Source: a virus
Lineage: Duplodnaviria; Heunggongvirae; Uroviricota; Caudoviricetes
IMG/VR virus record: IMGVR_UViG_2627854066_000004
Coordinates: 1 to 36,127 of that record
Direction: 5' to 3' (one strand)
DNA length: 36,127 nt
Of this stretch, positions 2,141 through 22,088 are shown piece after piece (position 1 is the first letter of the stretch; every line of letters begins with the position of its first letter). The translations under genes and the position numbers were made by a program. Below the pieces are notes generated by a model that ran no database searches, was not told the DNA's origin, and was given only the letters and a program-made list of their open reading frames with translations.

Positions 2141-2150
2141 CAGGTGCTTT

Positions 2151-2429: not shown

Positions 2430-2440
2430 AGGGCGTTGCG

Positions 2441-2793: not shown

Positions 2794-2879
2794 CAGAGCA
2801 AATAAAACCACTGGTTAAATAAGAAAATGTAAAAACAATCCGCATTCGCGGAGGTATTCGCACACGCCAAGGAGGCGTA

Positions 2880-3325: not shown

Positions 3326-3621
3326 GCACCATCAACCACCAGGAATTACGCGAACTGGCGACTGACCTGCAACGAATGGCAACACATCAAAAATTACTGG
3401 CGTTTCGCGCAATGCTCTCACCATCTGCTGTGCTGGCACTGCTGGATGAGCTGGAGCACGCCAGAACTACGGCGCCTGCCATTCGCCTGACGCTCCATCA
3501 TGAAATCACTGATTTCTGCGCAACACTGGGGGCACCTGGTGAACCGGAAACACCGGAAGCAATACAGCGCGAGCTATTACAACGCATCGACAACGTTTTC
3601 GATTTTTTCCTTAACCAGTAA
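3322..3621 (+). CDS. hypothetical early protein
   Basis: 99 aa, ATGA coupling to the upstream gene. Confidence 0.5.
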   Translation: MSTINHQELRELATDLQRMATHQKLLAFRAMLSPSAVLALLDELEHARTTAPAIRLTLHHEITDFCATLGAPGEPETPEAIQRELLQRIDNVFDFFLNQ

Positions 3622-3635
3622 GGGAGCAAATCACA

Positions 3636-4187: not shown

Positions 4188-4307
4188 GTAATCATCATGC
4201 ACACACAAAAAAACCGCTTGCCATGCCGCAATCAGTCAGGTTACATTTCTGCTGCACCTCATAAAACGGGTGCCGGGATTCTCAACCTGCTGACAAACGA
4301 AGCGCAC

Positions 4308-4328
4308 AACCGCGCCAGCGGTTTTTTT
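4308..4328 (+). terminator. rho-independent terminator
   Basis: AACCGC-GCCA-GCGGTT stem-loop followed by TTTTTTT. Confidence 0.55.
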
Positions 4329-4340
4329 GTGCGTACTGTA

Positions 4341-4448
4341 TTGCCACGTCTTTTTCGCACACGAATTATGGTGGGGCGTACGGGGCCGACTTCGGTCGGG
4401 CCGGTTTCTTCGTTTGCCGGTGTTGAGAACCCCGTACGTCTCGCCACC
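4341..4448 (+). promoter_or_regulatory. promoter-like element plus structured leader or small RNA upstream of the 4511 ORF
   Basis: TTGCCA-N17-AATTAT at 4341-4369, then a long hairpin at 4371-4447: CGTACGGGG (4377-4385) pairs with CCCCGTACG (4430-4438) and encloses a UUCG-capped stem CCGAC-TTCG-GTCGG (4386-4399). Confidence 0.3.
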
Positions 4449-4510
4449 CCGAGATTCTCAACTCTGGTTGGTGAGTATCCAAAAACTCACAAACGAAGAG
4501 GCCAAACACC

Positions 4511-4741
4511 ATGGCAAACCGCAAACAGCACCGCGCTATCGCGGAGCGTCGTCACATCCAGACTGAAATCAACCGCAGACTTTCCCGCGCATTCCGCGTC
4601 GCTAAAATCATGCACATCAATATGCTGCATGAGCGTAGCTGCGAACTTTCAAACCTCTATTCATCCGCTGTTTTCAGCTATCTGGCGGATGATCTGCGCG
4701 AGCTTCAGCAGCTCATCCAGCAGCAAAACAAACTCCATTAA
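4511..4741 (+). CDS. hypothetical basic protein
   Basis: 76 aa, AAGAGG RBS 9 nt upstream. Confidence 0.45.
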   Translation: MANRKQHRAIAERRHIQTEINRRLSRAFRVAKIMHINMLHERSCELSNLYSSAVFSYLADDLRELQQLIQQQNKLH

Positions 4742-4813
4742 TTCCTGTTCCGGGCCTTTCCTGCACCTTGCGGCGGGAGGCCTTCGCACATCTGTAGTAA
4801 AGAGAATTGCAGC

Positions 4814-5203
4814 ATGATTGACGCTCATGACTTCACAGGATGGGTGCGCACACAGGACACCCGTCTGGCTCCCGTTCTTCAGGGATTATTTGATCTTTAC
4901 ATCCGTGGTCGTGACAACAGAGCACGCACCACAAAACCGGAGAACGCGGACACCCTTTATTTCACAGTAGACGACTGCTACCGCGTGGACTTCACACCAC
5001 ACGGGCTGGCGTTGCACTGCCTGACACCACACGGCGAATCACTGCTGGCGTATTACGACTCCCCGGCCTCCGCATTTGCGGCAATGCTGGCGCATCGCAC
5101 TGCTGGCGGGTGTGCCTCGCTGAGTGAATACACCGCTGAATTTAACCGCCTTTCCGCCATCTTTTCGCAGGAGTGGCAGCGCGTGACGGGATACCAGCCA
5201 TGA
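4814..5203 (+). CDS. hypothetical protein, coupled to A
   Basis: 129 aa; its stop overlaps the gene A start (ATGA at 5200-5203). Confidence 0.55.
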   Translation: MIDAHDFTGWVRTQDTRLAPVLQGLFDLYIRGRDNRARTTKPENADTLYFTVDDCYRVDFTPHGLALHCLTPHGESLLAYYDSPASAFAAMLAHRTAGGCASLSEYTAEFNRLSAIFSQEWQRVTGYQP

Positions 5204-8052
5204 GTGAGTTTGCATGGAGCTGGAATGAGCCACGGCCAGCCATTGATCCGGCCAGATTTACGGAGCACAGGCAGGAAACTGAAACCGACCTGCAACGCGC
5301 CATCCGTTACTACCTTGAGGCAGACAAAAAGGCTCTGGAAGAACAGGAAGCGAAGGAGGAAGCCTTTTTCGCACAATCCACCGTGGGTAAAAAACTCATG
5401 GCATCCCTTGAGGAAGCCGGACAGCGTGAAAAGCTGGCACAAAGCATCATCAGCAAGCGTCAGGCAACAGAACAAGACCCGGTGGCCCGTGCTTTTGCCA
5501 CACTGAAGGTGCTTCCCGTTTATCTGCGTGAACCTCTGAGCCGCCACCTCTCTTTCCTGCGCAAAAAACAGGAAGCCGATCGTCAGAAAGGCAAAAAGAG
5601 CTGGCAGGCGGAACGCTACGCGCGCGGAACCCTGCGCAAAATATTCGAACGTCTGGACCGCACCGACAGCCGCTGGCTGACACCGGGTTATCGCTCCATT
5701 GCCGGACGCGAACGCCTGGACGATTTGCTTTACCTGCCGCAGCTCAACAAACACCAGATACAGACGCTGGCCACCATGACGGCGGCGATGTTCAGCAGCA
5801 CCTTCGAAAAGCTCTGCGATGGCTTTGGTGCGACTGATGGCGAGCTGACCATGGATGTAACGCTGAAGGCGTATCAGATGCTGGCCCGCATGGCGTTACA
5901 CCTGCACGCCATGCCTCCGCATTATGACGCACTGACAACAGACAAAGACCGGAGGAACGAACCGGACACGGAGCTGCTGCCGGGCGCAATCCTTCGCCTG
6001 ACCTGTGCAGAATGGTGGAAACGCAAACTGTGGCTGTTACGTTGCGAGTGGAGAGAAGAACAACTCCGCGCCGCCTGTCTGGTTTCCAGAAAAACATCGC
6101 CCTATCTGAGCCAGGACGCGTTAAGCGAGTTTCGCGCACAGCGCGAGAAAACACGCGATTTCCTGAAAAGTTTCATGCTGGAAAATGAAGACGGGTTCAC
6201 GATTGATCTCGAGACGGTGTATTACGCGGGAGTAAGTAACCCGGTTCACCGTAAGGCAGAAATGATGGCCACCATGAAGGGGCTGGAACTTCTGGCCGAA
6301 GCCCGTGGCGACAAAGCGGTGTTTCTGACTGTCACCTGCCCGTCAAAATACCACGCCACAACAGAGAACGGTCATCCGAATCCCAAATGGAACGGGGCCA
6401 CCATGCGCGACTCCAGCGATTATCTGGTTAACACGTTTTTTGCGGCGGTCCGCAAAAAACTGAACCGCGACGGCCTGCGCTGGTATGGCATCCGCACGGT
6501 GGAGCCTCACCATGACGGCACCGTGCACTGGCATATGATGGTCTTTGCTCATCCGGAAGAAATCGACAGCATCGTGGCCATCACCCGCGATATTGCCATT
6601 CAGGAAGACCGCCACGAGCTGGGCAATGATATTACTCCGCGCTTTAAGGTGGAGTATGTCGACGGCTCCAAAGGCACGCCAACCAGCTACATCGCCACCT
6701 ACATCGGAAAAAATCTGGACAGCCGCGCCGTGGATGGAATCGACCCGAAAACGGGCAAACCACGCGTTGACCACGAAACCGGAAAATCAATGGCCGAGAG
6801 CGTGGAGCGCGCCATCGGCTGGGCGCGCCTTCACCGCGTCCGCCAGTTCCAGTTCTTTGGCATCCCCTCCCGTCAGGTGTGGCGTGAACTGCGCCGCCTC
6901 GCCAGCCAGATGGCACGCAACCCGGAAGGCCCGCAACGGCTGAAGGATGACGCAATGGATGCGGTTCTTGCTGCCGCTGATGCCGGGTGTTTTGCCTCCT
7001 ACATTGAAAAACAGGGTGGCGTACTTGTTCCACGCAAGGACTACCTGATTCGCACCGCCTACGACCTCGCAGATGAGCTGAACGATTACGGCGAGCAGGG
7101 CGTACAGATTTACGGGATCTGGTCACCACTCATCGGGGAATCCTCCCGTGTGTGCACGCATCCGGATAACTGGAAGCTGGTAAGACGCAAACCGGAAGCG
7201 GAAGACAGCGCCCGCGAAAATGGTTTTGACCTTCAGGGCGGCCCTGCCGCCCCTTGGACTCGTGGCAATAACTGTCCCCGTGTACAGGAAACGGACAACA
7301 ACGGGACAGAACAGCCGGAAGAACGGCCAGCACCGTGGCCGCAGATCCCTGACGGTGTTGAAGTGAACGAATGGCTGCACTCACTGAAACGGCACGAACG
7401 CCGGGCGCTGATGCGTTCGCTGCGTGACAAACAGGCAAAAAACAACAGTGATGAAATGCAGAGCTGGACACAGAGCCGCAAACAGCAGCGGCCTTTGCCT
7501 GATAACCACGAATTACTCGCTAAAGAATGGCGGGAGTCTGCTGAATCCCTTGGCCTGCATATCGGTGAACAACAGATGCAGCACCTGTTACGGGGCGGCA
7601 GTCTGTACGTTGACGGCAGCATCATTGCACCGCAGGGATTTGAAATTGTACGCAAACCGGATACCCGCCCGGACAGCCGAATCACGCAGCTCTGGCAGCG
7701 CCTGAGCCGTAATCACGATGTAAGCAGCACGGAGATCCGCCATAACCCGGTCGCCAGCTATCTGGCACAGCTGGGGGCATCAGACCCTGAAGCCGCCGCA
7801 CGCCTGGCATCCACACTTCAGCAGGACCAGAACACCATGAAAACACCCGTTACCGTGCTTTCTGACATGCTGCGCGCCATCCGCGACGCAGAGCACGCAC
7901 AGAGAATCAGTGAAACCACTGAACGCGCCCGCCGCAAAGCAGACCTGCTGCGGGGTGGCCTGACCAGTGGAAACAAAAAACAGACAGAAACGGGATTCAC
8001 AAATCCCATAAATGAGCAAAAAAACGCGCCGCGATATATGAAGCGCGCATAA
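5200..8052 (+). CDS. A: rolling-circle replication initiator, P2 gpA family
   Basis: Contains an HUH-type motif GTVHWHMMVF and paired tyrosines YIATYIGK as in the P2 A family. Start set at ATG 5200; the six-frame ORF begins at 5173. Confidence 0.85.
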   Translation: MSEFAWSWNEPRPAIDPARFTEHRQETETDLQRAIRYYLEADKKALEEQEAKEEAFFAQSTVGKKLMASLEEAGQREKLAQSIISKRQATEQDPVARAFATLKVLPVYLREPLSRHLSFLRKKQEADRQKGKKSWQAERYARGTLRKIFERLDRTDSRWLTPGYRSIAGRERLDDLLYLPQLNKHQIQTLATMTAAMFSSTFEKLCDGFGATDGELTMDVTLKAYQMLARMALHLHAMPPHYDALTTDKDRRNEPDTELLPGAILRLTCAEWWKRKLWLLRCEWREEQLRAACLVSRKTSPYLSQDALSEFRAQREKTRDFLKSFMLENEDGFTIDLETVYYAGVSNPVHRKAEMMATMKGLELLAEARGDKAVFLTVTCPSKYHATTENGHPNPKWNGATMRDSSDYLVNTFFAAVRKKLNRDGLRWYGIRTVEPHHDGTVHWHMMVFAHPEEIDSIVAITRDIAIQEDRHELGNDITPRFKVEYVDGSKGTPTSYIATYIGKNLDSRAVDGIDPKTGKPRVDHETGKSMAESVERAIGWARLHRVRQFQFFGIPSRQVWRELRRLASQMARNPEGPQRLKDDAMDAVLAAADAGCFASYIEKQGGVLVPRKDYLIRTAYDLADELNDYGEQGVQIYGIWSPLIGESSRVCTHPDNWKLVRRKPEAEDSARENGFDLQGGPAAPWTRGNNCPRVQETDNNGTEQPEERPAPWPQIPDGVEVNEWLHSLKRHERRALMRSLRDKQAKNNSDEMQSWTQSRKQQRPLPDNHELLAKEWRESAESLGLHIGEQQMQHLLRGGSLYVDGSIIAPQGFEIVRKPDTRPDSRITQLWQRLSRNHDVSSTEIRHNPVASYLAQLGASDPEAAARLASTLQQDQNTMKTPVTVLSDMLRAIRDAEHAQRISETTERARRKADLLRGGLTSGNKKQTETGFTNPINEQKNAPRYMKRA

Positions 8053-8089
8053 AACAGGCAAAAACGGGATTTCAGAATCCCGTAAACGA
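7977..8089. repeat. two 39-bp imperfect direct repeats, each with a GGGATT-N4-AATCCC palindrome
   Basis: Copies at 7977-8015 and 8051-8089 are 31/39 identical, straddle the gene A stop and lie just upstream of the StbA-like gene. Confidence 0.5.
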
Positions 8090-8117
8090 TTAATTAATCA
8101 ACATAAGGAAAAGCGAC

Positions 8118-9077
8118 ATGAAAATTTGTATCGACGACGGCTCCACCAACATCAAGCTGGCATGGACTGAGAACGGCGAACGCCGCAACGCCATCAGCCC
8201 GAACAGCTTCAAGTCGGAATGGTCTGCGCCGTTCGGTGGCTCGCAGCCTGCGAACTACATGCTTGATGGCGTGCGCTATGGTTTTGATCCGGTCAGCGAT
8301 CGCTTTGTCCAGACGACCGACACGCAATACCAGTACAGCGATGTGAATGTCATTGCCATTCATCACGCGCTGGTCAAATCAGGCATCACGCCACAGGAGG
8401 TGGATGTGGTTGTCACCCTGCCACTGAGCGAGTATTTCGACACAAACGCACAGCCGGACATGGCCAACATCAACCGCAAAAAAGCGAACGTTATGCGCCC
8501 GGTGGAGTACCAGAACGGCGAAGCATTCACTATCCGTAACGTGCGGGTTATGCCTGAATCCATTCCGGCTGGCTTTAAGGCACTGGCTGACATGAGTCCG
8601 TTTGAATCCCTGCTGATTGTAGATTTGGGCGGAACCACGCTGGATGTGGCAAAGGTTCAGGGGCAACTGGCAGGTATCAGCCAGGTGTTTTGCGATCCAC
8701 ACGTAGGCGTTTCTCTGATGGCCGATGCCGTACTGTCGGTGATGGCCACTAACGGTATGCGCACCAGTCACCACATCGCCAATACCATTATCGAACATCG
8801 CCATAATGAAGCCTGGCTGCGCCAGCACATCCACAATGACGCGCATTACGCCAGCCTGATGGAGGTTATTCGTGAAAAGGAAGAAACACTGAAACAACGC
8901 GTGATCCGCGCGCTGGCGGGTTTTTCGGGTTACGGGCGGGTGATGGTTGTCGGTGGAGGGGCGGAGATTGTGGCACCCGCTATCCGCGAAGCCTGCGGAG
9001 TTAATGCGACTTTCATCGCGGACGGGGTGCCACAGTTTGCTCTGGTTAATGGGCTGTACGCAATGGACAAGGAGTAA
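8118..9077 (+). CDS. actin-like segregation ATPase, StbA/ParM family
   Basis: 319 aa; N-terminus MKICIDDGSTNIKLAW and the LIVDLGGTTLDVA phosphate-binding motif match the StbA/ParM family of plasmid R100/R1. Confidence 0.8.
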   Translation: MKICIDDGSTNIKLAWTENGERRNAISPNSFKSEWSAPFGGSQPANYMLDGVRYGFDPVSDRFVQTTDTQYQYSDVNVIAIHHALVKSGITPQEVDVVVTLPLSEYFDTNAQPDMANINRKKANVMRPVEYQNGEAFTIRNVRVMPESIPAGFKALADMSPFESLLIVDLGGTTLDVAKVQGQLAGISQVFCDPHVGVSLMADAVLSVMATNGMRTSHHIANTIIEHRHNEAWLRQHIHNDAHYASLMEVIREKEETLKQRVIRALAGFSGYGRVMVVGGGAEIVAPAIREACGVNATFIADGVPQFALVNGLYAMDKE

Positions 9078-9081
9078 ACCA

Positions 9082-9393
9082 ATGACGACACCAACCAGAC
9101 GGATAAGTTTCTATCTGAAGCCCGCCGCCGTCAAGAACGAAGGCGAAGCATGCGCCTGGCTGGACAGCCTTACACCAGAAGCCCGCAAAAGCGGCCAACG
9201 CGTGGCTTTTCTGGCCGGGCTGGCACTTCTGAAAATGAATCCGGCAGAGGCTTACCGACTGGCTGCATGGGCTGACGATGAGGCGTTATCGGTGACACAA
9301 ACCAGGACAGAACGCCCCGCGTCACAGCCAGTATCAACCGCACAGATAACCAGTCAGATGGCCAGAAATATCCGGGCGTTATTTCCCGAATAA
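9082..9393 (+). CDS. StbB/ParR-like small DNA-binding partner (putative ribbon-helix-helix)
   Basis: 104 aa directly downstream of the StbA-like gene, AAGGAG RBS overlapping its 3' end; N-terminal beta-strand-like RRISFYLKP and C-terminal NIRALFPE resemble StbB as I recall it. Confidence 0.5.
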   Translation: MTTPTRRISFYLKPAAVKNEGEACAWLDSLTPEARKSGQRVAFLAGLALLKMNPAEAYRLAAWADDEALSVTQTRTERPASQPVSTAQITSQMARNIRALFPE

Positions 9394-9399
9394 CACAAC

Positions 9400-9421
9400 A
9401 TCAGGGCGCATCCGCCCTGAT
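9400..9421 (+). terminator. stem-loop after the stbAB-like unit
   Basis: ATCAGGGCG-CATC-CGCCCTGAT, a 9-bp perfect stem; the downstream T-tract is weak (GACTTT). Confidence 0.4.
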
Positions 9422-9456
9422 GACTTTAATCCGGGAACATAAACAAGGGGGACACA

Positions 9457-9792
9457 ATGCAACACATTGACAGAGAAAAAGAGCAGCGACTGATTGAGCG
9501 AATGGAAGCGCTGGCGAAAGAAGAAAATGTCAACATCCAAAAAATAGCTGAATGTGGCCAGATAGTTCTTCGTCGTGAAAAAGACATCAAGCAACTGATG
9601 TCTGGCGAAATCAGCAAAACATGGACTTCAGGCAAGAAGACGATTTATTGCAGCTTCTGCAATAAATCCCAGCACGAAGTCATAAAGGTGATTGCCGGAC
9701 CGTCTGTTTACATCTGCAATGAGTGCGTGGATTTGTGCAATGAAATTATCAGAGGAGAAGTGACAGACCATGAAGAAAAAACGCATGAATGA
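9457..9792 (+). CDS. small protein with C-terminal ClpX-type zinc-binding domain
   Basis: 111 aa; the C-terminal segment [38 protein letters not shown] is almost identical in pattern to the N-terminal C4 zinc-binding domain of ClpX (recalled as [38 protein letters not shown]). The N-terminal 60 aa are unrelated. Confidence 0.7.
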
Positions 9793-9857
9793 CGAATTTG
9801 ACGGCTTTTAATTTTATCGGGGCGCACTGTCTCCCCCCCCCGCACGAGGAAAACACG

Positions 9858-10382
9858 ATGAAAAAATACGAATACATGCTAATGAAAGAAGCACTGCGGG
9901 CTGGTCTGGCTCCCTGTCCTGTATCCGTAGAAGCTGTTGTTGGGAACACGATTTTCCGAACGCTGCGAAATCGCGTATCCGTGAAGATGATTCACCAACC
10001 ACCCAAATCTACCAGCATGATCTATCTGCCGCTGCCCGAGGCTATCAAACTTATGCGTTCGCTGAAATTTGCGATTTGGATGCAGACACAACTCAACAAA
10101 GCGGTGCAAAACACCTTCGTTAAGAAACTGATGCCGGAGCTTGCTGCCAGATGTGCAAAATGTACCAGACCCGCACTTCAATTTGATCTGTCATTGATTC
10201 AACAAGCTACGGAGGCAGAACTGTACCGCCTGTCACCTCTCCATGATGTTCACACGGAAGCCTCAGAAATGTTCCGGCTCATGTTTCAATTTAATTTTGC
10301 CGTTCGACGCACACGCGTTCAGGTCAATCGCATGATGCAGGCGCAGGAAGAGCTGACGCAACACAAAGGAGGCAACCAGTGA
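9858..10382 (+). CDS. hypothetical protein
   Basis: 174 aa from ATG 9858 with a GAGGA RBS; no domain recognised. Confidence 0.55.
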   Translation: MKKYEYMLMKEALRAGLAPCPVSVEAVVGNTIFRTLRNRVSVKMIHQPPKSTSMIYLPLPEAIKLMRSLKFAIWMQTQLNKAVQNTFVKKLMPELAARCAKCTRPALQFDLSLIQQATEAELYRLSPLHDVHTEASEMFRLMFQFNFAVRRTRVQVNRMMQAQEELTQHKGGNQ

Positions 10383-10903
10383 GCAAGATTGACTATCAGG
10401 CATTACGCGAACGCTATTCACCTGCGCCAGTACCGAAATGCCCTATTTGCGGCGAGGAAATGTCAATTCAGCGAATATCTGGAGCACAGGTTGTTTATGC
10501 CTGCTCCGGTTATGGTGATGATGGAGATTTCAAAATTGGTCGAACTCTTGCCGACGAACATTATGAAAAATCGCGCGTAACAGTGTTGGATGTCGGGGAT
10601 CCTGAAGTATTGGCGCTACTTGATTGGCTGGAAACTAAAGACAACCGAATCGCTGAACTGGAAAAAATCGCCACTGACTATGCACTTAAATTCCAGAAAG
10701 CACAGGACGCATTAAAGCATGCCGCTTTGCTGCATAGCCGGACGGCGCAACAAACAAATAATTTTGCAGTATCGCTTCCGGACATAAGCGAATATTTCAT
10801 TAATGACGTATTTCAGCCCTTGCGATACGAGCGGGATGTTGAAAGAGCCATCATAAAGGCTGGCGGAAAAGCATTGTGGCAGGAGAAACACGACGACAGA
10901 TAA
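10379..10903 (+). CDS. hypothetical protein with N-terminal zinc-ribbon-like motif
   Basis: 174 aa; GTG start overlaps the upstream stop (GTGA) with an AAAGGAGG RBS; CPICGEEM...YACSGYG. Confidence 0.55.
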   Translation: MSKIDYQALRERYSPAPVPKCPICGEEMSIQRISGAQVVYACSGYGDDGDFKIGRTLADEHYEKSRVTVLDVGDPEVLALLDWLETKDNRIAELEKIATDYALKFQKAQDALKHAALLHSRTAQQTNNFAVSLPDISEYFINDVFQPLRYERDVERAIIKAGGKALWQEKHDDR

Positions 10904-10928
10904 AAATAACACCTGATCTCCCTCAAAC

Positions 10929-10954
10929 CAGGGCGATAATCGCGCATCGCCCTG
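10929..10954 (+). terminator. stem-loop after the three-gene unit
   Basis: CAGGGCGAT-AATCGCGC-ATCGCCCTG, a 9-bp stem; no clean T-tract immediately after. Confidence 0.35.
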
Positions 10955-10955
10955 C

Positions 10956-10982
10956 TGCACAATAGTGCACAAATTTGCACAA
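10956..10982. repeat. three TGCACAA repeats with 10-bp phasing
   Basis: TGCACAA at 10956, 10966 and 10976, followed by a T7 run. Confidence 0.5.
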
Positions 10983-11406
10983 TTTTTTTGAACGACTTTT
11001 TGCCCTTCCGGCCCGCGTGGCGGCTGGATCCGTCAAGGATCCGTGCGTGCACAAAAAAACGCGTTTTTTCTGCGCGCAGGTGACGGGGGAACAGCCCGCG
11101 TTTCAGGGGGTAAATAGCATCCCCTGAACGATGTCGCAGCAACACAACAGAATGGCTGTATTTCTCACGCTGAGCGTGAAAAAGACGTGAGGGCTTTTGA
11201 TTTGATGGGGTGGCAGATAAGGCCGTCAAAATCGCACTGAGGCGGCGAGAACATGCAGTCAGCGCGATGGGATTGCGTAAGAGCCTGACCGTCGATGATG
11301 GCAATAAGCTGGAAGACGTCGTGAAATTATCTGATTGATACAGGAGCTGGAGAGTCGGGGCATAAATTTTTTATGCCCCGGCGAAGCAGCAGACAAGCGA
11401 AGCGCG

Positions 11407-12453
11407 TCAGGATGTGGGCTGGGTGTCCAGCAGTGCGTAAGGGTTAAAGCGGATCACCTCTTCGCCAAGCCAGTCATTGATGTGCTTCATAGCCTCCATG
11501 ACGGGCATCAGCTCGTTAATTGCGTAAACCCGCGCGGCCTTCTCCACATCACCAAACGCACTTTTTTCGCCCGGCATTGCCCCCATCAGTTGCGGCGGAA
11601 CGCGGTGCGCAGCCAGCACATCATCACGGGATGCCGCCTTAACATTCATGAACTCATCCTTTGCGGTGATCTGCTGGAACGGCAAAATTTGCACCCCCTC
11701 TTTGCCCCCGTTGGGCGCGTGGATGAGCACGTTTTTAAACGCACCACCACCACGCGCACCCTGTAACGTTTCTTTCAGGGAGTCCATGCTTTCGCGGTTT
11801 ACCTGCGCTGCACCGATGTAGATGATGCACCCGGCGTGGGATCCGTTGTCGTAATACAGTTTTCTGAACATGTCCGCCGAATGAGACAGGCTGGCCGAGA
11901 GTAATGCGCCAAGATATTCCGGCATGCCGTAAATTTCCTGGTTAATGTCCGGATTCATCAGGTGGCACACTTTGCCAGGGCAAAACTGAAACGCGTCCTT
12001 GCCATCCTGCACATACCACCATGATTCAAGATCGCTTCCGCGTCGCATGTATTTCGCCAGTGCGTGCCGTAATTTAAGTGGTTCGCCGAGCATATTGCTC
12101 CGAAGCTCAAGGAATGCGTTACCGAACACAAACCAGTCCAGCGCCAGCGCCGAGAAATCCTGCCGGGAAAGCAGCGGGTGCGGGATGTAGCAACCGAGCA
12201 ATACATTGCGCTTAAAGTAAAGCGCAGACTGATGCCAGGACGTTTGCCGGGCGGCTCTTGCCAGACCGTACCAGTCCACCGGGGTTTCATACCACCGCCC
12301 GTTATCAGCACAGTACATATTGTCCAGCAGGTCATGCCCGGTCAGGCGATAAGGACCATCAAATGTGAATGCACTGAGCGATGATTCTTTCCTGAGCGCA
12401 TCAGCGAGATCAATGCGTGAACTCATGCGCACTTTTTTATTTTTTCTGCTCAT
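11407..12453 (-). CDS. Q: portal vertex protein, P2 gpQ family
   Basis: 348 aa, size and position as P2 Q, leftward and adjacent to terminase P. Confidence 0.85.
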   Translation of the reverse strand: MSRKNKKVRMSSRIDLADALRKESSLSAFTFDGPYRLTGHDLLDNMYCADNGRWYETPVDWYGLARAARQTSWHQSALYFKRNVLLGCYIPHPLLSRQDFSALALDWFVFGNAFLELRSNMLGEPLKLRHALAKYMRRGSDLESWWYVQDGKDAFQFCPGKVCHLMNPDINQEIYGMPEYLGALLSASLSHSADMFRKLYYDNGSHAGCIIYIGAAQVNRESMDSLKETLQGARGGGAFKNVLIHAPNGGKEGVQILPFQQITAKDEFMNVKAASRDDVLAAHRVPPQLMGAMPGEKSAFGDVEKAARVYAINELMPVMEAMKHINDWLGEEVIRFNPYALLDTQPTS

Positions 12454-14203
12454 CAGAACTCCATAACCGTGAAACGCTCGTTTTCTCCTTCGCCGCCAAT
12501 TGGTTCGTTAATGACAGCAAGCATGGTTGCCCACGCAAGGTCGCCGTGGCTGATCCCCCTCGCGCGGTCCGTTTCGTAAGTGATAAAGCCGCCCGGTGTT
12601 TTCACCTTACGCACGGCGTTAAAGGCCGCGACCAGCTCGCGTTCGGCGCGATCGTATTCCCACCGTCCGGCACGCATTATTTGCAGCATTTTCAGTACCA
12701 GCGACCGTTTGGATGACAGCGTGAAGGTGTACGGAATAGCAGCAGGGAAAAACCGCTTCACTATCTGATAAACAGCCTCCCCGTTCCCGCCCGTCACATC
12801 AATGCCGATGTGTTCCACGTTGTAGCGACACGTGAACTCTTCAATGACTCTGGCCTGTTCTTCAAACTCCAGCCCCTGAACGCGTCGCGTCTCCACCGTT
12901 CGAAAACGGCCACCAGGAACAGCCGGAGGAACCACCACGGACACAGCGCCGCTGTCGCCGTTGCCACTGCTGCCGTTTGCGTCATACCCAATCCATACCG
13001 GACGATTCCCCATCGGGCGGGGAGCAAAAGGTTTCCAGTCTTTCCAGTCGTCGTATCCGTCAACACCGCAGCCAATCAGGATATTCAGGTTAAATGCCGA
13101 TTCCCCTTCGCGGACAAACTCACACATATAGAGATTGCGGAACTCGTCTTCGGTGTTTTCATCACGAATTTCGTCAATATCGGTGTGTTTCCAGCCGTGA
13201 TTAACCACATCTTCCAGCGTGACAATTTGCCGCCACGTCCGGTCAGGGCAGATAAGCCCGTTATGCAGCGTTTTCCAGTCCACAGAAAAACGCTGGCGTT
13301 TATGCGTGGCCTTTTTCTCGTTCCAGCGGTCGCCGTTCCAGTAGGCGTATGCCTCGTGCGTTTCGGTGGATGGCGTGGAGAAGTAGGTGCGCCGCAGTCC
13401 GCTGAGGGTTGCCATAGCGCCAGCCACCTTGCGCAGTTCAGCAAAGCGGCTGACCCAGAAAAATTCATCAAAATAAAAATTGCCCGTGTAGGACTGTGCC
13501 GTCGCAGCAGAAGTACCAAGAAAATGCAGCTCTGCACCGTTGGAGAGGATGATTTTATCGCCCCCTTTCAGCTCCACATCAACTTCAGATGCAGCCTTCT
13601 GAATAATGCTTTTAAACTGGAACGCCTGACGACGCGACGCAGACAAAAAAATCTGGTTACGCTGGTAAGGTTGTGCCACATCGTCACGCAGTGCCATCAG
13701 CAGTGCTTCCTGTGCAAAATACCAGGTCGCCCCAATCTGTCGGGATTTCAGGATCATCCTGTTACGTATCCCGGCTTCCCTGCAAAGGGTCAGAGAGTCA
13801 AACCAGCCCCGCTGATGCCACTCCAGCCTGCTGATGATTTTTTCCCGCAGTGCGGCAATCTGTTCCGGCGTGAAATGATTTTTGAGTTTTTCGCCCGGCT
13901 TTTCTTTCCTGTGGCCGTCGCATCCGGCTGGCCATCATGCAGTTTTTTAAGCTGCCGGGTCAGCAGGTCTATTTCCTTGAAGTCACCACCTGTTTTACTC
14001 TGTTTTTCAGTAAGCTGGATGAGGCGCGCATCGATGGACTGCGTGACACGCTGCACGGGTGGTGTTTCATCCCACTGGTCGCGTTTTTTCCACGCATAAA
14101 TCGTGTTCGGGTTTATTCCCATCAGACGTGATATTTCTGCGGGCGGATAACCCTGCCAGTAAAGTTGCCGCGCACGCTGGCGCACAAAAGCGTCCTGAAT
14201 CAT
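12453..14203 (-). pseudogene. P: terminase large subunit (P2 gpP family), interrupted by an apparent -1 frameshift
   Basis: The N-terminal piece (ORF 13790-14203) and the C-terminal piece (ORF 12453-13757, whose frame stays open upstream) are in different frames. The switch lies in a T-run at about 13899-13909: GGAAAG where GGAAAAG would give a continuous ...ATATGKEKPGEKLKNHF... Confidence 0.75.
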
Positions 14204-14357
14204 TGCTCCCCCTGAGTAATTACAGGAAGATTACCCGCGCGCGAAACCGTTCTCCTTAACCCCCTGTTCTGGCCGTTTTCTTACAACAAAAGCCCTTTGT
14301 ATCAGCCTGTTACGCTTTGCCATCATGACTGAAGAACCAGTCAGAGGGGCAAAAACT
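14204..14357. promoter_or_regulatory. divergent late-promoter region between P and O
   Basis: 154-bp gap between divergently transcribed packaging and head operons; promoter elements were not resolved. Confidence 0.35.
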
Positions 14358-15194
14358 ATGACTAATGAAAAAAAGACATCCCGCAAAAAGTTTCGCGTGG
14401 CTGTCTCCGGTGTGACGGCAGACGGGCGCGAAATCAACGGCGACATGCTGAAAGCTGCCGCCACCAGTTATAACCCGTCCGTTTATGGTGCACGTGTGAA
14501 TATTGAGCACATCCTGTCACCACTCCCCGGCAGCGAGTTTTCCGCTATGGGCGATGTTGTGGGGTTGAGCACCGAAGACATAACCGATGGCCCGCTGGCA
14601 GGCCGCACGGCACTGTATGCCGAAATTGAGCCGACCGCTCGCATGATGTCCCTGCTTAACGATGGTAAAAAAATTTACTCCAGTATTGAGCTGGAACCAC
14701 AGTCAACCATCACGGGAGGCCCTTACCTGCGCGGGCTGGCAATGACCGACACCCCCGCCAGCCTGGGCACGGAACGTCTGGCCTTTGCGGCACAACAACG
14801 TATGCAACTGATGACATTCAACTGTCAGCAGGGAGACGTGGCGATGTTTACCGCCGCTATGGAGTCAGAACTTATCGAACTCACCGAACAACGTCAGGAA
14901 GAAGGCACCCAGTGGTTTAACCGCGTTATGGGGATTATTGGCCGTGGCCGCAAAGCGGATGACGCCAGTTTCTCCCGTATTCAGGAAGCGGTGGAAGGTG
15001 TCGCAACATCACAGGCCGACATTATCGACCGTTTTAATGCACTGGAAACCCGCCATCAGCAGGACAGCCAGAAAATCACTTCGCTGACCACAGAGCTGAC
15101 AGCACTGAAGGAAAAACTGCGCACGCAGGACGGCGATCCGCAGAACCGGTTCACCGCAACGGGCGCAGCCTCCGACCAGCTGGCTGACTTCTGA
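14358..15194 (+). CDS. O: capsid scaffolding protein, P2 gpO family
   Basis: 278 aa from ATG 14358 with a GAGGGG RBS; first gene of the rightward head operon. Confidence 0.8.
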   Translation: MTNEKKTSRKKFRVAVSGVTADGREINGDMLKAAATSYNPSVYGARVNIEHILSPLPGSEFSAMGDVVGLSTEDITDGPLAGRTALYAEIEPTARMMSLLNDGKKIYSSIELEPQSTITGGPYLRGLAMTDTPASLGTERLAFAAQQRMQLMTFNCQQGDVAMFTAAMESELIELTEQRQEEGTQWFNRVMGIIGRGRKADDASFSRIQEAVEGVATSQADIIDRFNALETRHQQDSQKITSLTTELTALKEKLRTQDGDPQNRFTATGAASDQLADF

Positions 15195-15217
15195 TAAGAC
15201 AAAGGAGCAAATTTTTT

Positions 15218-16270
15218 ATGAATCTGGTGATGTCAGATAATGCCCGTAACAAGCTGGGCTGCTACATGACGCGACAGGCGTCGATTAACAATATCCCGGT
15301 TTCTGGACTGGTATCGCGATTTACCGTGGAACCCGCGGTGCAGCAGCGTTTTGAAAACGCCTCAAAGGATAGCACCGAACTTACAAAAAAAATTAACGTG
15401 ATCGGTGTGACCGACCAGAAAGGCGAAAAAGTCCTCATGGACACCACCGGGCCGATTGCGCGCACAAATACCAGTTATGACGGCACAGATCGCCGCAACC
15501 CGATTAACGCTGTCGACCTGAAGTCCCGTCAGTACCAGTGTGAGCAGGTGAACTACGACACGTTTATTTCGTATCCGCAGCTTGATGCCTGGGCGGCGCA
15601 CAATGACTTCCAGACCCGCATCAGCGCACAGATTGCCCGACAGGTGGCGCTTGACCGCATCATGATCGGCTTTAACGGCACGTCACACGCGGAAAAATCC
15701 AACTTCAGCACCAACAAGCTGCTTCAGGACGTTAACGTGGGGTGGCTGGAGCACATCAGAACCAATGCCAGCGCGCGCGTAATGAATGACGTGACGCTGA
15801 CCTCCCGCAACATGGACAACACCGTGGCGCACGCGGGTAAGTATGCGAATGCTGATGCACTGGTTCAGGACGCACGCTCATCCCTGCTGGATGAATGGCA
15901 CAAGGAAGCTGACGACCTCGTGGTGATTATGGGGCGCAACCTGTTTAACTCGCTGCGTCTGCCCGTGCTGAACAGCATCAGCGGCCAGAATCCCAATGCG
16001 GAATTACTCGCCGGGCAGCTCATCCTGTCATCGCGCACCATTGGCGGGCTGGGTGTGTTCCTTGCGCCGTTCTTCCCGGATGCAACGATGCTGATCACCT
16101 CGTTCAACAACCTGTCGATTTACTGGCAGAAAGGTTCAATGCGTCGCCTGATGAAAGACGAGCCGGAATACAACCGCATCGCCACCTACCAGTCCATCAA
16201 TGACGCTTATGTCGTTGAAGACTATGGCAAGTGCGCGATGGTCACTGGCCTGAAGTTCGCCGACAGCTAA
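15218..16270 (+). CDS. N: major capsid protein, P2 gpN family
   Basis: 350 aa with an AAGGAG RBS, between the scaffold and small terminase genes. Confidence 0.85.
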   Translation: MNLVMSDNARNKLGCYMTRQASINNIPVSGLVSRFTVEPAVQQRFENASKDSTELTKKINVIGVTDQKGEKVLMDTTGPIARTNTSYDGTDRRNPINAVDLKSRQYQCEQVNYDTFISYPQLDAWAAHNDFQTRISAQIARQVALDRIMIGFNGTSHAEKSNFSTNKLLQDVNVGWLEHIRTNASARVMNDVTLTSRNMDNTVAHAGKYANADALVQDARSSLLDEWHKEADDLVVIMGRNLFNSLRLPVLNSISGQNPNAELLAGQLILSSRTIGGLGVFLAPFFPDATMLITSFNNLSIYWQKGSMRRLMKDEPEYNRIATYQSINDAYVVEDYGKCAMVTGLKFADS

Positions 16271-16315
16271 TCAACTCACGGCGGGCATCATGCCCGCCTG
16301 TAACGGAGAGAAACA

Positions 16316-17116
16316 ATGATTACTCCTGCACAGCAACACTGGCAGAACGTGATGGCACAGCGCGCAGGCCGGGCGAATGAAGGCGTGGACCACGCCGCGC
16401 GTACCGCGCATGAAGAGGTGCTGTATCGTCTGCGTCTGGCACAGGCCCGGCTTAAGGGCGTACAGGCCAGAAGCGCGAAAGCCGCCATCAAAAAAGAGTT
16501 GTTGCCGGATTTTTCCGGCTGGATTGAGGGAACGCTGGAGGCTGACGGCGGGCAGCAGGATGAAGTGATTGCCACGCTGATGGTGTGGGCGATTGACTGC
16601 GGCGATCTTCCGCTGGCGTTGCGTATTGGTGCGTATGTGGTCCGTCATAACCTCATTATGCCGGATAACTTTGGCCGTACTGCTGCCACAGTGCTGACCG
16701 AAGAAATCTGCAACCCGGTACTGACGCAGGCCGGGACGGATGCCGACGCGGATTTGTCCGCCTTTATCGAACCACTGGATACCCTCCGGGAGATTGTCAC
16801 CGACCAGGACATGCCGGACGAAGTGCGCGCCAAATTATGCAAGGCGTGCGCCTTTGCCCGCCGTGGCCTGAGCGATGCGGACAGCATGGCACTGTCACTG
16901 AAGCTGCTGCGCGAAGCAATGCACCTGAACCCGAACGCAGGTGTGAAACGCGAGATTGCAACCCTTTCCCGCGCCCTGAAAAAAGCCGATTCCGCAGCCG
17001 CACCAGAAGACGCCAGCGCACAGCAGGCGCAGGACGAAAGCAGCAAAAGTAAAAAGACAACGCGGAAGCCTGCAACACGAAAAACCACCGCGACGCAGAA
17101 GGCGAAGCGCGGTTAA
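16316..17116 (+). CDS. M: terminase small (endonuclease) subunit, P2 gpM family
   Basis: 266 aa with a lysine/arginine-rich C-terminal tail. Confidence 0.8.
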   Translation: MITPAQQHWQNVMAQRAGRANEGVDHAARTAHEEVLYRLRLAQARLKGVQARSAKAAIKKELLPDFSGWIEGTLEADGGQQDEVIATLMVWAIDCGDLPLALRIGAYVVRHNLIMPDNFGRTAATVLTEEICNPVLTQAGTDADADLSAFIEPLDTLREIVTDQDMPDEVRAKLCKACAFARRGLSDADSMALSLKLLREAMHLNPNAGVKREIATLSRALKKADSAAAPEDASAQQAQDESSKSKKTTRKPATRKTTATQKAKRG

Positions 17117-17217
17117 CGACTGACCCCGTCAGCGGGCGGCGTGCGCGGTGTTCCGGTCTGACTCCGTGACCGTTTACACCGCGCACCCACCGCCCGATTT
17201 TTTCAGGAGTGAACCCC

Positions 17218-17712
17218 ATGAGTATGGTTGCCAGAACCAACCCCGGACCCGCAGAGGACGACATCACCGATACCGATGATGGTGATACCCGTATTTCAGC
17301 AGGTGCATTCTGGCCGGATATTGTGCTGCGTGAGCTGCGTCTGGCGGTACGACTGCCGGGGCGCGTGACCACCTCCCGCCTGCTGCATACCGCCACCGGG
17401 GCCGTGGCACACGTTACCCGCGAGCTGGAAGCGTGGCAGCAGGAACAGCAGGCGGCTGGCCATCAGACGCTGGCCGATGTTCCGGCACCCGTAATTAACG
17501 GAGAAAGCGTCAATCTCTGGCACTGGCGCAATGCGGTTTACACCGCCACACGCGCCCTGATTCTGGAGCGTTACCGCGATGCGGACACAACGGACAAGGG
17601 CGACCGCCGGGCGGACGCACTGGATATACAGACATCGGATTTGTGGCGCGATGTGAGCTGGGCCATCTCTGACATTCTGTGCCGCCCGCGAATCTTTGCG
17701 GAGTTGTGCTGA
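17218..17712 (+). CDS. L: head completion/stabilisation protein, P2 gpL family
   Basis: 164 aa from ATG 17218 with a CAGGAG RBS. Confidence 0.8.
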   Translation: MSMVARTNPGPAEDDITDTDDGDTRISAGAFWPDIVLRELRLAVRLPGRVTTSRLLHTATGAVAHVTRELEAWQQEQQAAGHQTLADVPAPVINGESVNLWHWRNAVYTATRALILERYRDADTTDKGDRRADALDIQTSDLWRDVSWAISDILCRPRIFAELC

Positions 17713-17912
17713 TGAAAGTGAAGGCACTGGAAGGCGACACCGTGGATTCGCTCTGTTTCCGGTACTACGGCACGACGCAGGGCGTCACCGAAAAGGTGCT
17801 GGATGCCAACCCCGGACTCTGTCAGCAGGTATTTCTGGACGCCGGGCAGGAGGTGGAGATGCCGGAGCCGGAGAAGAAGAAACGAGAAATGATTCAGTTG
17901 TGGGGGGAGTAG
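17712..17912 (+). CDS. X: tail protein X
   Basis: 66 aa; start overlaps the L stop (TGATG). Confidence 0.7.
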   Translation: MKVKALEGDTVDSLCFRYYGTTQGVTEKVLDANPGLCQQVFLDAGQEVEMPEPEKKKREMIQLWGE

Positions 17913-17914
17913 CA

Positions 17915-18238
17915 GTGAGCACCATTCAAACAGGGATCACAGAGCAGGTTATTGCGTGGCTCTTTGACCACCTGCCAACGGTGTATGCAGTAGGCGCGGC
18001 GGTCAGCATTTCCGCGCTGATGAGTCTTTATGACGGACGAACACTGGTTCAGACCGTAACGGGATCGCTGGCGTGCGGCGTTCTTGCCATGGCCGTGGCC
18101 GGGTCGTTGCGCTTCTTCGGGTTTCCTGAAGATGCCGTGACGTTTATCGGCGCATCAATCGGTTTTATGGGTGCAGAGAAAGCACGCGACAAGGTTATTG
18201 CGGCCTTTAATCGCAGGGTGAAGGAGAAGGACGAATGA
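17915..18238 (+). CDS. holin
   Basis: 107 aa from a GTG start with a GGGGGGAG RBS; hydrophobic segments; located immediately upstream of the endolysin. Confidence 0.6.
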   Translation: MSTIQTGITEQVIAWLFDHLPTVYAVGAAVSISALMSLYDGRTLVQTVTGSLACGVLAMAVAGSLRFFGFPEDAVTFIGASIGFMGAEKARDKVIAAFNRRVKEKDE

Positions 18239-18627
18239 GCAACACATTTAAATTCAGCAGCCGGAGCGAAAAGAATTTGCAGGGCGTAAATCCTGATCTG
18301 GTGAAAGTGACCCGACGGGCACTGGAAATCTCGGAAGTGGATTTTGGTATCACCGAAGGGTTGCGCAGCCGTTACCGCCAGAAGCAACTGGTGGCCACGG
18401 GTAAGAGCCAGACCATGAACAGCCGCCACCTTACGGGACATGCCGTGGATGTTGTGGCTTATATCGGCAGCCAGGTGTCATGGGAATGGCCGCTGTACGA
18501 AAAAATCGCAGCAGCATTCAGACAGGCCAGCCGGCAACTGAATATTCCGGTGGAATGGGGCGGCGACTGGAAGACCCTGAAAGACGGACCGCATTTTCAG
18601 TTACCACACGGAGCCTATCCGGCATGA
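18235..18627 (+). CDS. endolysin, peptidase M15-type (L-alanyl-D-glutamate peptidase)
   Basis: 130 aa with the zinc-ligand motif SRHLTGHAVD and a downstream His; ATGA coupling with the holin. Confidence 0.7.
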   Translation: MSNTFKFSSRSEKNLQGVNPDLVKVTRRALEISEVDFGITEGLRSRYRQKQLVATGKSQTMNSRHLTGHAVDVVAYIGSQVSWEWPLYEKIAAAFRQASRQLNIPVEWGGDWKTLKDGPHFQLPHGAYPA

Positions 18628-19031
18628 AGCTCTGGCCCACGCTGGGCGTCGCTTTCCTTCTGATTGCCGCATGGGGAACATCCATGCGTCTGTCGTGGTC
18701 GCTGGGCCGGGAGAACGCCAGAAACGAAGCGCAGGCCAGCGCCCTGAAAAGTACCGTCGACACCCTGAATATCATCAGCACCGGGGTACAGGATATGCAG
18801 CAGGTGCTGGCGCAACTCCGCGTGGAAAATCAACAGCGAAATCAGGACGGAGAGGCCAGACGTGAACAGCTACGCAACGATATTGCAAAAGATGAATGCG
18901 CCCACGCTTTGCCTGACGCTCGTTTTACTGACAGGTTGCGCAGGCACGCAGAACGCGCCACGGCCAGCGCCGTCAGTCCGGCTTATACCGCAGACGCTGA
19001 CCATACCAGTAATGCCTCCCCCCTTCCCTGA
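18624..19031 (+). CDS. i-spanin (Rz/LysB-like)
   Basis: 136 aa; N-terminal TM segment LWPTLGVAFLLIAAWG followed by a charged coiled region. Confidence 0.6.
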   Translation: MKLWPTLGVAFLLIAAWGTSMRLSWSLGRENARNEAQASALKSTVDTLNIISTGVQDMQQVLAQLRVENQQRNQDGEARREQLRNDIAKDECAHALPDARFTDRLRRHAERATASAVSPAYTADADHTSNASPLP

Positions 19032-19182
19032 TACTCCCACATGGGGAAATCTCGGTATATGGGGCGACCGCCTTCTGGATGCACTGGAAACCTGTAACGC
19101 GGATAAACGGGCCATTGAATTACTGGAACAGCGCAGACTGCAACGACTGAACAACGAGGACAACAACCATGCTGAAAACTGA
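18892..19182 (+). CDS. o-spanin lipoprotein (Rz1/LysC-like), starting in the +1 frame inside the i-spanin gene
   Basis: Signal peptide with lipobox LLTGC (MNAPTLCLTLVLLTGCAG); proline-rich mature part. An alternative GTG start lies at 18862. Confidence 0.6.
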   Translation: MNAPTLCLTLVLLTGCAGTQNAPRPAPSVRLIPQTLTIPVMPPPFPDTPTWGNLGIWGDRLLDALETCNADKRAIELLEQRRLQRLNNEDNNHAEN

Positions 19183-19636
19183 TTCCCTGCGTGAAGCCAT
19201 GACCCGTTCATGCCGATGGTGTCAGGCCAACCCGGAAAAATTCACCATTTTCGTGGAGAGCGGCAACATTGAAACGACCGGAGAAACGCCCTCGTTTGTT
19301 TACCACTATCAGATGGTGATGTTTGTCATGGATTACGCCGGGGAGCTGGACGACCTCACGCTGCCGCTGCTGGCGTGGTTATCCGAAAATCAGCCACAGT
19401 TGTTGCTCAACCCTGAGCGTAATCAGGACATCAAATTCTCCGCCGTTATCAATGACGATGACAGCGCCGATCTCCTGTTTACGCTCCCCCTGCGGGAACG
19501 CGTTCGCATCACGCGCAGCAGTCAGGGCACACCGCAGGCAGAACACCTGCCGGAGCCAAAACCCCGCCTGCCATCTTCCGAAGGCGACTGGTCGCATGTA
19601 TTCCAGGATGTGACGTGGGGTGAAAGCGATGGATAA
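19169..19636 (+). CDS. R: tail completion protein, P2 gpR family
   Basis: 155 aa, the same length as P2 R. Confidence 0.8.
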   Translation: MLKTDSLREAMTRSCRWCQANPEKFTIFVESGNIETTGETPSFVYHYQMVMFVMDYAGELDDLTLPLLAWLSENQPQLLLNPERNQDIKFSAVINDDDSADLLFTLPLRERVRITRSSQGTPQAEHLPEPKPRLPSSEGDWSHVFQDVTWGESDG

Positions 19637-20264
19637 GGCATTCACCCGCGTGGATGAAACCTTTGAGGCCATCCGCGACAGCCTGAATCAGCAGGCCATC
19701 AATAACATCGCCAGAAAGCTGGCACAGGATTTACGCCGCGCCCAGCAGGCGCGTATCCGGTCACAGAAAGCGCCGGACGGGACCGCGTGGACACCACGCA
19801 GACGCCGCGTAACCCGGATACAGGAGCGCATTCGCTTTATCTGGAATAACGAAGCACGCACGCTGAAAAACTGGCATCACGACACGGGGAAATACGGGCG
19901 AACCATTACCGGGTGGGATGAGGATAAAAATAATATCCGCACGTTTTACCGGGATGACATCGACCGTTTTCTGGAAATACGCACCCGGCGCATCAACCAG
20001 GACAGCACAAAGCGCGTCCCCATGTTCGTAAAACTGCGCACCGCCCGCTACCTGAAAGCCCGTGCAGATGCTTCCGGTGTGACGGTGGGTTACAGCGGCG
20101 TGGCCGCACGTATTGCCCGCGTTCATCAGTTCGGTGAGCGCGATCAGGTTGCGCCGGGCATTTTCACCGATTACCCGGTACGTGAGCTGTTGGGTATCAG
20201 CCAGGCAGATGAGCGCCTGATTTATAACACGGTGCTGGGCCGGATTGCGGAGGCTGTACGGTGA
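19629..20264 (+). CDS. S: tail completion / virion morphogenesis protein, P2 gpS family
   Basis: About 211 aa; start may be the GTG at 19620 or the ATG at 19629. Confidence 0.7.
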   Translation: MDKAFTRVDETFEAIRDSLNQQAINNIARKLAQDLRRAQQARIRSQKAPDGTAWTPRRRRVTRIQERIRFIWNNEARTLKNWHHDTGKYGRTITGWDEDKNNIRTFYRDDIDRFLEIRTRRINQDSTKRVPMFVKLRTARYLKARADASGVTVGYSGVAARIARVHQFGERDQVAPGIFTDYPVRELLGISQADERLIYNTVLGRIAEAVR

Positions 20265-20842
20265 GCGCAGAACTCATGCGACTGCTGAGCAATATCATCC
20301 GCACCGGGATCATCTCTGAAGTTGATGAGAAGTCCTGGCGCGTGCGCGTTCGCAGCGGCGAACTGGAAACAGGCTGGCTGCGCTGGAACACCACGCGCGC
20401 GGGAGCCTTCAATGTGTGGCTGCCGCCATCACCAGGCGAACAGGTGGTAATTGCCTGCATTGGCGGCAACCCGGAAACCGCCATGATAATTGGCAGCCTG
20501 TGGAGTGATGCCAATCCGGCACCCGGCAAAAGCCTGAAAGAAATCGTGATCAGCGCGCCGGACGGCGCGGTGTTCCGCTACGACGCGGACGCTGGCGCAC
20601 TGAGCGCCAGCGGCATGAAAACGGCCACTTTACAGGCATCCGTCAGCGTGAAACTGGATACGCCCGTCGTGGAATGCACAAACCTTCTGAGAACGGCGAC
20701 GCTTGACGTCACAAAAGGAGGAAAGATGAGCGGCAATATCACGCACAGCGGCGGCAACTTCACCTCAAACGGCATTACCGTGCATACGCATAAACACGGT
20801 GGCGTGAAAGGCGGCAGCGATTCGACAGGAGGCCCGCAGTGA
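20261..20842 (+). CDS. V: baseplate spike/assembly protein, P2 gpV family
   Basis: 193 aa from a GTG start with stop/start overlap. Confidence 0.8.
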   Translation: MSAELMRLLSNIIRTGIISEVDEKSWRVRVRSGELETGWLRWNTTRAGAFNVWLPPSPGEQVVIACIGGNPETAMIIGSLWSDANPAPGKSLKEIVISAPDGAVFRYDADAGALSASGMKTATLQASVSVKLDTPVVECTNLLRTATLDVTKGGKMSGNITHSGGNFTSNGITVHTHKHGGVKGGSDSTGGPQ

Positions 20843-21189
20843 CAACCCGCTACACAGGAATGAATCCGGACGGGACGGGAAACCTGAACGATATGGAGCA
20901 CCTGAAACAGTCAGTCAGGGATATCCTGACCACCCCGCTGGCAAGCCGGGTTATGCGACGGGAATATGGCAGCCTTGTGCCTGATTTGATTGACGAACCC
21001 ATGAATAACACCACGCGTCTGCAATGCATGAGTGCTGCCGTGATTGCGCTGACACGATGGGAACCCCGCATTGCCCTGGATGCCATCGACGTTGTCTGGA
21101 AAGCGGGAGGCCGCGCCGGGGTGACGCTGTCGGGCACTGTCATGCAGACCATGCAAAATGTTGAATTAACCATCACGCTGAGGGAGTAA
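20839..21189 (+). CDS. W: baseplate wedge protein, P2 gpW family
   Basis: 116 aa between V and J. Confidence 0.8.
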   Translation: MTTRYTGMNPDGTGNLNDMEHLKQSVRDILTTPLASRVMRREYGSLVPDLIDEPMNNTTRLQCMSAAVIALTRWEPRIALDAIDVVWKAGGRAGVTLSGTVMQTMQNVELTITLRE

Positions 21190-21192
21190 ATC

Positions 21193-22088
21193 ATGCCTGC
21201 CGTTGACCTTTCCCAGTTACCGGAACCCGCCATCATCGCGGAGCCTGACTTTGAGGCAATTCTGGCTGACACAAAGGCCATGATGATTGCGGCTTATCCC
21301 GCCGAACAGCGTGAAGCCGTCTCCGCCGCGCTGGAGCTGGAATCGGAACCCCTGAACGTTATCGCCCAGACAACAGCGTTTCGTGAAATGCTGTTACGCC
21401 AGCGGGTCAATGAGGGGGCACGCGCCTGCATGTTAAGCCACAGCGCCGGGACAGACCTGGACAACCTCGCGGGCAATATGAACACAAAGCGCCTGACCAT
21501 CACTCCGGCAACGGATACCACCGACGCGGTGATGGAGAGCGACACCTCGCTGAGACTGCGGGCGCAGCGGGCGTACGACGGCCTGAGTGTTGCTGGCCCG
21601 TCAGGTGCATACGAGTATTTTGCCCGCAGCGCCAGCGGTCTGGTGCGTGATGCGCGGGCTATCAGCCCGTCTCCGGCAAATGTGACGGTTTCCATCCTGT
21701 CCACTGAGGGCGACGGCACAGCAACGGAGGCGTTGCTTAATACCGTTCGCGCCGTTCTGAATGCAGAGGATACCCGCCCGGTGGCCGACCGCCTGACCGT
21801 ACAGAGCGCCAGAATCGTGACATGGCGGCTGAATGCAAAACTGTACTTTTACCCGGCCCGGAATCCGAACCTATTCTGGCCGCGGCTGAATCGTCGTTCA
21901 GGAAGTGGCTGGCTGAGCAGGGGCTTATCGGTCAGGACGTGGCGTTGTCCGCCATTGCTGCCGCACTGCATGTGCACGGTGTGCAACGCGTGGAGATAAT
22001 CGAACCCACACAGAATATGACCATCAGCGACATACAGGCGGCGCGCTGTGAGTCATTCACCATCAGCGAAGGTGGACGCAATGAGTAA
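21193..22088 (+). pseudogene. J: baseplate protein (P2 gpJ family), interrupted by an apparent 1-nt deletion
   Basis: ORF 21193-21999 loses its protein-like character after ...LYFYP, while the frame of ORF 21822-22088 continues with GPESEPILAAAE... The sequence reads CCCGGCCCGG at 21852-21861 where CCCGGGCCCGG would restore the frame. Confidence 0.75.

Follow-up and report, generated by a model that had tools for sequence, protein, structure and literature searches.

The large terminase gene, of the P2 gpP type, occupies positions 12453-14203 on the minus strand of the window (the whole 36,127-nt stretch of DNA that was analyzed) and belongs to a P2-like phage head-gene block extending from 11407 to 17116. 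Downstream on the same strand lies the portal gene gpQ (11407-12453), which is intact and shares one base with the terminase stop codon, an overlap also present in P88, and on the plus strand the divergent head genes gpO (scaffold), gpN (capsid) and gpM (small terminase) are all intact (14358-17116). The phage collection contained 16 full-length matches to the terminase gene at 97.5-98.5% nucleotide identity, among them P88 (Xuanwuvirus, Peduoviridae) and PhiR44_2, in which the counterpart is a single 1752-nt CDS annotated as terminase large subunit or ATPase subunit GpP. The same length is found in hundreds of E. coli prophages. With 1751 nt, as opposed to 1752 nt in these homologues, the gene in the window carries a -1 frameshift, and a sequence-only reading that it is split by a one-base homopolymer deletion was thus confirmed.

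The length of 1751 nt is not divisible by three, and two ORFs result. The upstream ORF (13790-14203, minus strand; 137 aa) consists of 105 native residues, covering the gpP-like HTH domain and part of a linker, followed by 32 out-of-frame residues, after which the other frame runs open to the usual stop at 12453. The downstream ORF (12453-13757, minus strand; 434 aa) begins at an internal methionine, Met150, in a poor Shine-Dalgarno context (AACAGGATG), and includes complete ATPase and nuclease domains; its frame is open upstream as far as 13934. A one-base repair yields a protein of 583 aa, in which Pfam recognized Terminase_5 (PF06056, residues 6-63, E = 1e-27; gpP-like HTH), Terminase_6N (PF03237, residues 150-374, E = 4e-51; ATPase) and Terminase_6C (PF17289, residues 405-566, E = 7e-31; RNaseH-like nuclease), placing the frameshift in the linker between the HTH and ATPase domains.

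The gene encodes an ordinary large terminase of the P2/P88 type (Xuanwuvirus-like) and conforms to the gpP-family standard in its domains, its synteny and its sequence. Along its full length it is 97.7-98.5% identical at the nucleotide level to the P88 and PhiR44_2 genes. It shares with P88, PhiR44_2 and the P2 gpP family the HTH, the T4-type ATPase followed by the RNaseH-like nuclease, and the divergent Q-P/O-N-M layout, with portal gene Q downstream on the same strand. The family feature that it lacks is an uninterrupted ORF of ~583-590 aa, which is regained when one A is added to a run of five: the gene differs from gpP of P88 and PhiR44_2 in that it lacks one base, having A5 rather than A6 following codon 105, hence the two ORFs. 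Next to the head-gene block, an intergenic T-run between gpM and gpL (17198-17203) has six T in the window and in some relatives and at least seven in others, and appears to be a natural length polymorphism of no coding consequence.

The prophage and its source

The window corresponds to an entire prophage, from the integrase stop codon to the end of a methyltransferase gene, located between pheA and raiA. The sole exact match to the 137-aa terminase fragment was contig JXMX01000001.1 (2.27 Mb) of assembly GCA_000831715.2, which derives from E. coli 53C, an ST117 isolate from chicken meat in the Netherlands. The element is mosaic, and a full-length near-identical prophage was not found among complete RefSeq E. 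coli genomes.

Several regions of the element vary among relatives or carry accessory genes. Near the 3' end of replication gene A, a run of seven A (8018-8024) is A6 in one relative (L004), with C-termini giving proteins of 950 and 941 aa, respectively; because the 950-aa form occurs exactly on at least 24 other contigs, the A7 variant is real rather than an error. The prophage, which is integrated in the chromosome, also encodes a ParM/StbA-like actin ATPase and a StbB-like partition protein (8118-9393), and both genes are kept across the P88-like relatives examined. Between these genes and the portal gene, the segment 9457-10903 carries three genes with no match in PADLOC, whose products are a ClpX-type zinc-finger protein of 111 aa, an Ead/Ea22-like protein of 174 aa and another protein of 174 aa. 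This slot behaves as a variable hotspot, since its gene content differs among relatives, where it holds DUF3800, DUF4760, an S8 peptidase with an AAA ATPase, or Rrf2 genes. A C9 tract at 9825-9833 lies just upstream of the called start (9858) of a 174-aa gene, within a longer ORF that opens at an ATG at 9789, and is C8 in a near-identical relative (L028); it may be phase-variable, or else a further homopolymer miscall.

Farther along, positions 23810-27041 form a multi-cassette invertible tail-fibre region, in which the 3' end of fibre gene H (23810-24049) shares inverted repeats of 209-240 nt (84-91% complementary) with three downstream cassettes encoding 'Collar' domains (~24917-26446). These are followed by a gene for a Hin/Cin-type recombinase (26442-27041), and relatives carry from one to five Collar cassettes in varying order and orientation. 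The right end (34300-36127) encodes a hok/gef-type toxin, a 98-aa TM2-domain protein and a Com-like zinc-ribbon protein whose gene overlaps that of an N6/N4 DNA methyltransferase, a layout resembling Mom/Com regulation; the methyltransferase had a strong match to Type II methyltransferases in PADLOC. Beyond the right end of the window, by ~0.7-2.2 kb, an IS4 copy is present between raiA and bamD (positions 2084-3510 of flank sequence L057). The gene caller of the collection split its transposase into two genes (101 and 336 aa) despite a canonical sequence, and a third assembly error was suspected here; this was rejected, as many complete E. coli genomes contain the IS together with its flanks at 100% identity, which also identifies the element as an old, shared insertion.

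Location of the lost base in the terminase gene

Insertion of one base at any point between 13792 and 13935 gives back a single ORF, and the site of the lesion therefore cannot be fixed from the window alone. To place it, three homologues and a 99.9% identical E. coli chromosomal copy were aligned with the window. The missing base belongs to the coding-strand run GCG-AAAAAA-CTC, which is A6 in the homologues and A5 in the window, corresponding to five T on the plus strand at 13887-13891 where all relatives have six bases. The loss had been assigned previously to GGAAAG at 13904-13909 (within about 13899-13909), and this assignment did not hold: the coding-strand sequence GGAAAGAAA that encompasses it (13901-13909) is conserved among the homologues, and the base was lost from the next run, 13-22 nt downstream in the coding direction. 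The two repairs predict different products, TGKEKPGEKLKNHF if GGAAAG is extended to GGAAAAG and TGKKSRAKKLKNHF if the A-run is restored as guided by the homologues. The 583-aa protein containing TGKKSRAKKLKNHF was found, residue for residue, on 31 other contigs. The k-mers GCCGGGCGAAAAACTCAAAAATC and GCCGGGCGAAAAAACTCAAAAATC are diagnostic for the A5 and A6 states, respectively.

A companion lesion in the baseplate gene J

A similar lesion had also been proposed for the baseplate assembly gene J (21193-22088, plus strand), and the comparison upheld it. A run of three C at 21852-21854 is C4 in all relatives, and J encodes 268 aa as written instead of the 298 aa that are obtained after a one-base repair (diagnostic k-mers CTTTTACCCGGCCCGG for C3 and CTTTTACCCCGGCCCGG for C4). 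The repaired protein occurs exactly on 794 other contigs. Alignment of the window with its best chromosomal relative revealed exactly two indels in 12.2 kb at 99.7% identity, namely the terminase base and the change from C4 to C3 in J.

Distribution of the lesions among relatives

Neither lesion was found in any other genome. By exact protein look-up, the truncated terminase fragment and the truncated J were each present on one contig, that of the source. Among the 119 IMG/VR contigs that carry the 35-mer adjoining the A-run, 118 have A6 and the remaining contig has AAAAAG, A5 being absent from all of them, and a 32-mer bearing A5 had no match in the viral, species-representative genome and metagenome collections. 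Likewise, complete RefSeq E. coli genomes lacked the window's version of either site, with exact matches to the terminase 61-mer in 0 of 831 matching genomes and to the J 61-mer in 0 of 1007. Relatives that were fetched through exact matches to gpA, tail fibre H, the tape measure or gpR all have T6 and C4. The gpR gene proved to be common (1194 blocks) rather than rare, and it yielded the best twin, L189, described below.

Two near-identical copies allowed the comparison to be extended beyond the lesions themselves. A 44.6-kb Logan contig from a public sequencing run (L026), which sits at the same pheA locus, is equal to positions 1-15051 of the window apart from the T-run base and a single SNP at 535. 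The SNP is synonymous, as it leaves the very common integrase protein unaltered. The second twin, CM142776.1 (L189), has no substitutions relative to positions 9171-23824 and differs from the window at both window lesions and at one private single-base indel of its own in gpO (L189 position 5975, window position 15144), a position at which no other relative has an indel and at which CM142776.1 loses gpO. Over the ~24 kb covered by the twins combined, the 53C copy therefore differs by one synonymous substitution and two homopolymer deletions, and in twins with 0-1 substitutions over 15 kb the terminase and J are both intact.

These counts bear directly on the possibility that the two ORFs constitute a functional arrangement, either as separate HTH and ATPase-nuclease proteins or through ribosomal -1 slippage on GCG-AAA-AAC. 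The break does fall in the linker between Terminase_5 and the ATPase, the downstream ATG is exactly Met150, and a -1 slip at AAA-AAC would, as read from the sequence, give a near-native protein again. Nevertheless, the sequence-only reading had named conservation of the two-ORF arrangement in homologues as an outcome that would count against it, and no such conservation was found: A5 is present in 0 of 119 IMG/VR copies, and a single ORF is found in 118 of these and in all fetched relatives. This lack of conservation leaves a programmed or functional split without support. In addition, G-AAA-AAC is not a canonical X-XXY-YYZ slippery heptamer, separate translation would start from the poor Shine-Dalgarno context of Met150 and lose residues 106-149, and the unrelated lesion of the same type in J points to a common, trivial cause. 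We therefore regard a functional split as highly improbable.

The 434-aa ORF was also found on 23 contigs, which raised the prospect of a shared frameshift; among the places listed this was rejected, as most of them were contig ends 306 nt upstream of the ATG. Three further records that carry this ORF (L007-L009) have lesions that differ from those of the window.

Origin of the frameshifts

The strain 53C was sequenced with PacBio RS II (P4-C2 chemistry) and assembled with HGAP3 at 66.7x into 11 contigs, with correction by PacBio reads mapped back to the assembly; the paper mentions no short-read polishing (PMC4270446). A separate Illumina data set exists for 53C (PRJNA224234). Residual errors of such RS II-only (HGAP/Quiver) assemblies have been described in the ARAMIS study, in which a benchmark E. 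coli assembly contained 37 indel errors, 29 of them deletions and 86% in homopolymers, affecting 16 genes, and other genomes had far more indel errors than E. coli (PMC8574707). The window resembles these cases in its short-homopolymer deletions, truncated predicted proteins and single platform, and in a lesion that is absent from all short-read relatives. The features of a consensus error that the analysis covered are all present: a long-read assembly without described short-read polishing, private one-base homopolymer indels, and repairs that recreate sequences found elsewhere. Two private one-base homopolymer deletions in an RS II assembly built from one platform, within a prophage that in all other respects is identical to intact copies, constitute the signature of such errors.

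The terminase split and the loss in J are therefore most likely homopolymer under-calls in the PacBio RS II-only consensus rather than biological changes. An under-call would have dropped one A/T from the A6 run of the terminase gene, and the loss of one C from the C4 run in J would be an error of the same kind; judged by comparison of consensus sequences, the base is probably absent from the consensus but present in the DNA itself. The 53C prophage would then encode the full 583-aa terminase and the 298-aa J, and the element would be presumptively functional.

Some observations count against an error. G/C runs accounted for most of the benchmark deletions, but the base lost from the terminase gene belongs to an A/T run, and the two lesions within the ~40 kb examined are denser than the 37 errors per 4.6 Mb of the E. 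coli benchmark (PMC8574707). Moreover, a private indel was not found in the 4.2 kb of chromosomal flank that could be reached on the source contig. The same density and the same clean flank favor the view that slipped-strand mutation genuinely, and very recently, produced both frameshifts in the 53C prophage; homopolymer runs are where replication slippage naturally occurs. Other assemblies do contain frameshift products of this A-rich stretch, including a related 137-aa product (P0002; E. coli E128010) that was found on eight contigs from several sources, and A-run frameshift alleles of the terminase gene may exist in nature.

Nevertheless, genuine mutation would require two inactivating indels to have arisen independently while the ~24 kb compared with intact twins gained no more than one substitution. 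In mutation-accumulation work, substitutions usually outnumber indels in mismatch-repair-proficient E. coli. The ratio in the window reverses this usual excess and so disfavors a genuine origin. Neither lesion is common to any other genome, and selection for them is not obvious, since loss of the terminase or of J would not be expected to spare the host from lysis. Finally, the assembly platform is known for exactly this artefact (PMC8574707). Genuine mutation is accordingly an unlikely, although not negligible, source of the two frameshifts.

The sequence-only reading had offered a decaying prophage and homopolymer errors in the assembly as the two explanations for the lesions. Of these, error is favored by the RS II-only source, the private nature of the lesions and the intact twins, and decay, if taken to mean that lesions accumulated or were inherited, is not supported. 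As in cryptic or decaying P2-like prophages of E. coli, two structural genes cannot be read as written; unlike in those elements, the window contains no further damaged gene, IS element, deletion or nonsense mutation, the lesions are not shared, and the rest of the 36-kb element is complete.

Frameshifts in other public records of this phage group present a similar picture. The RefSeq phage 500465-2 (NC_049343, L003) has its terminase in three pieces, with the portal and scaffold genes also split into two to three pieces each, JAVRGL010000001.1 (L184) has frameshifts in most head genes, and L007 carries an additional base in the very A-run that is affected in the terminase gene of the window. 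The private indels in CM142776.1, 500465-2 and JAVRGL010000001.1 look like uncorrected long-read errors in reference data, and indels in long-read or 454-era and other early-platform records of this gene are comparable to the private lesions of the window.

Implications

If the lesions were real, the prophage would have been disabled twice, in packaging and in baseplate assembly, only a few generations ago, with the genes for lysis, regulation and cargo still intact, a course of events that we consider rather improbable. The result would be a freshly inactivated element that lyses its host but neither packages DNA nor builds a baseplate, with its cargo locked in the chromosome. Such an element would show prophage domestication at its initial step, perhaps in a strain made prone to slippage by defective mismatch repair, and would represent routine early prophage inactivation.

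With consensus error as the favored explanation, the window contains nothing new in kind, combining a standard gpP terminase with a known class of long-read homopolymer error, and the distinction matters mainly for annotation hygiene. Taken at face value, the split would cause the prophage to be scored as defective or domesticated together with its cargo, namely the genes flanked by the partition and portal genes, along with the right-end hok/TM2/Com-methyltransferase module. Other public long-read records of this phage group call for the same caution where they carry obvious frameshifts. For the 53C element, the evidence favors treating it as a presumptively intact, mobile P88-like prophage rather than a domesticated one.
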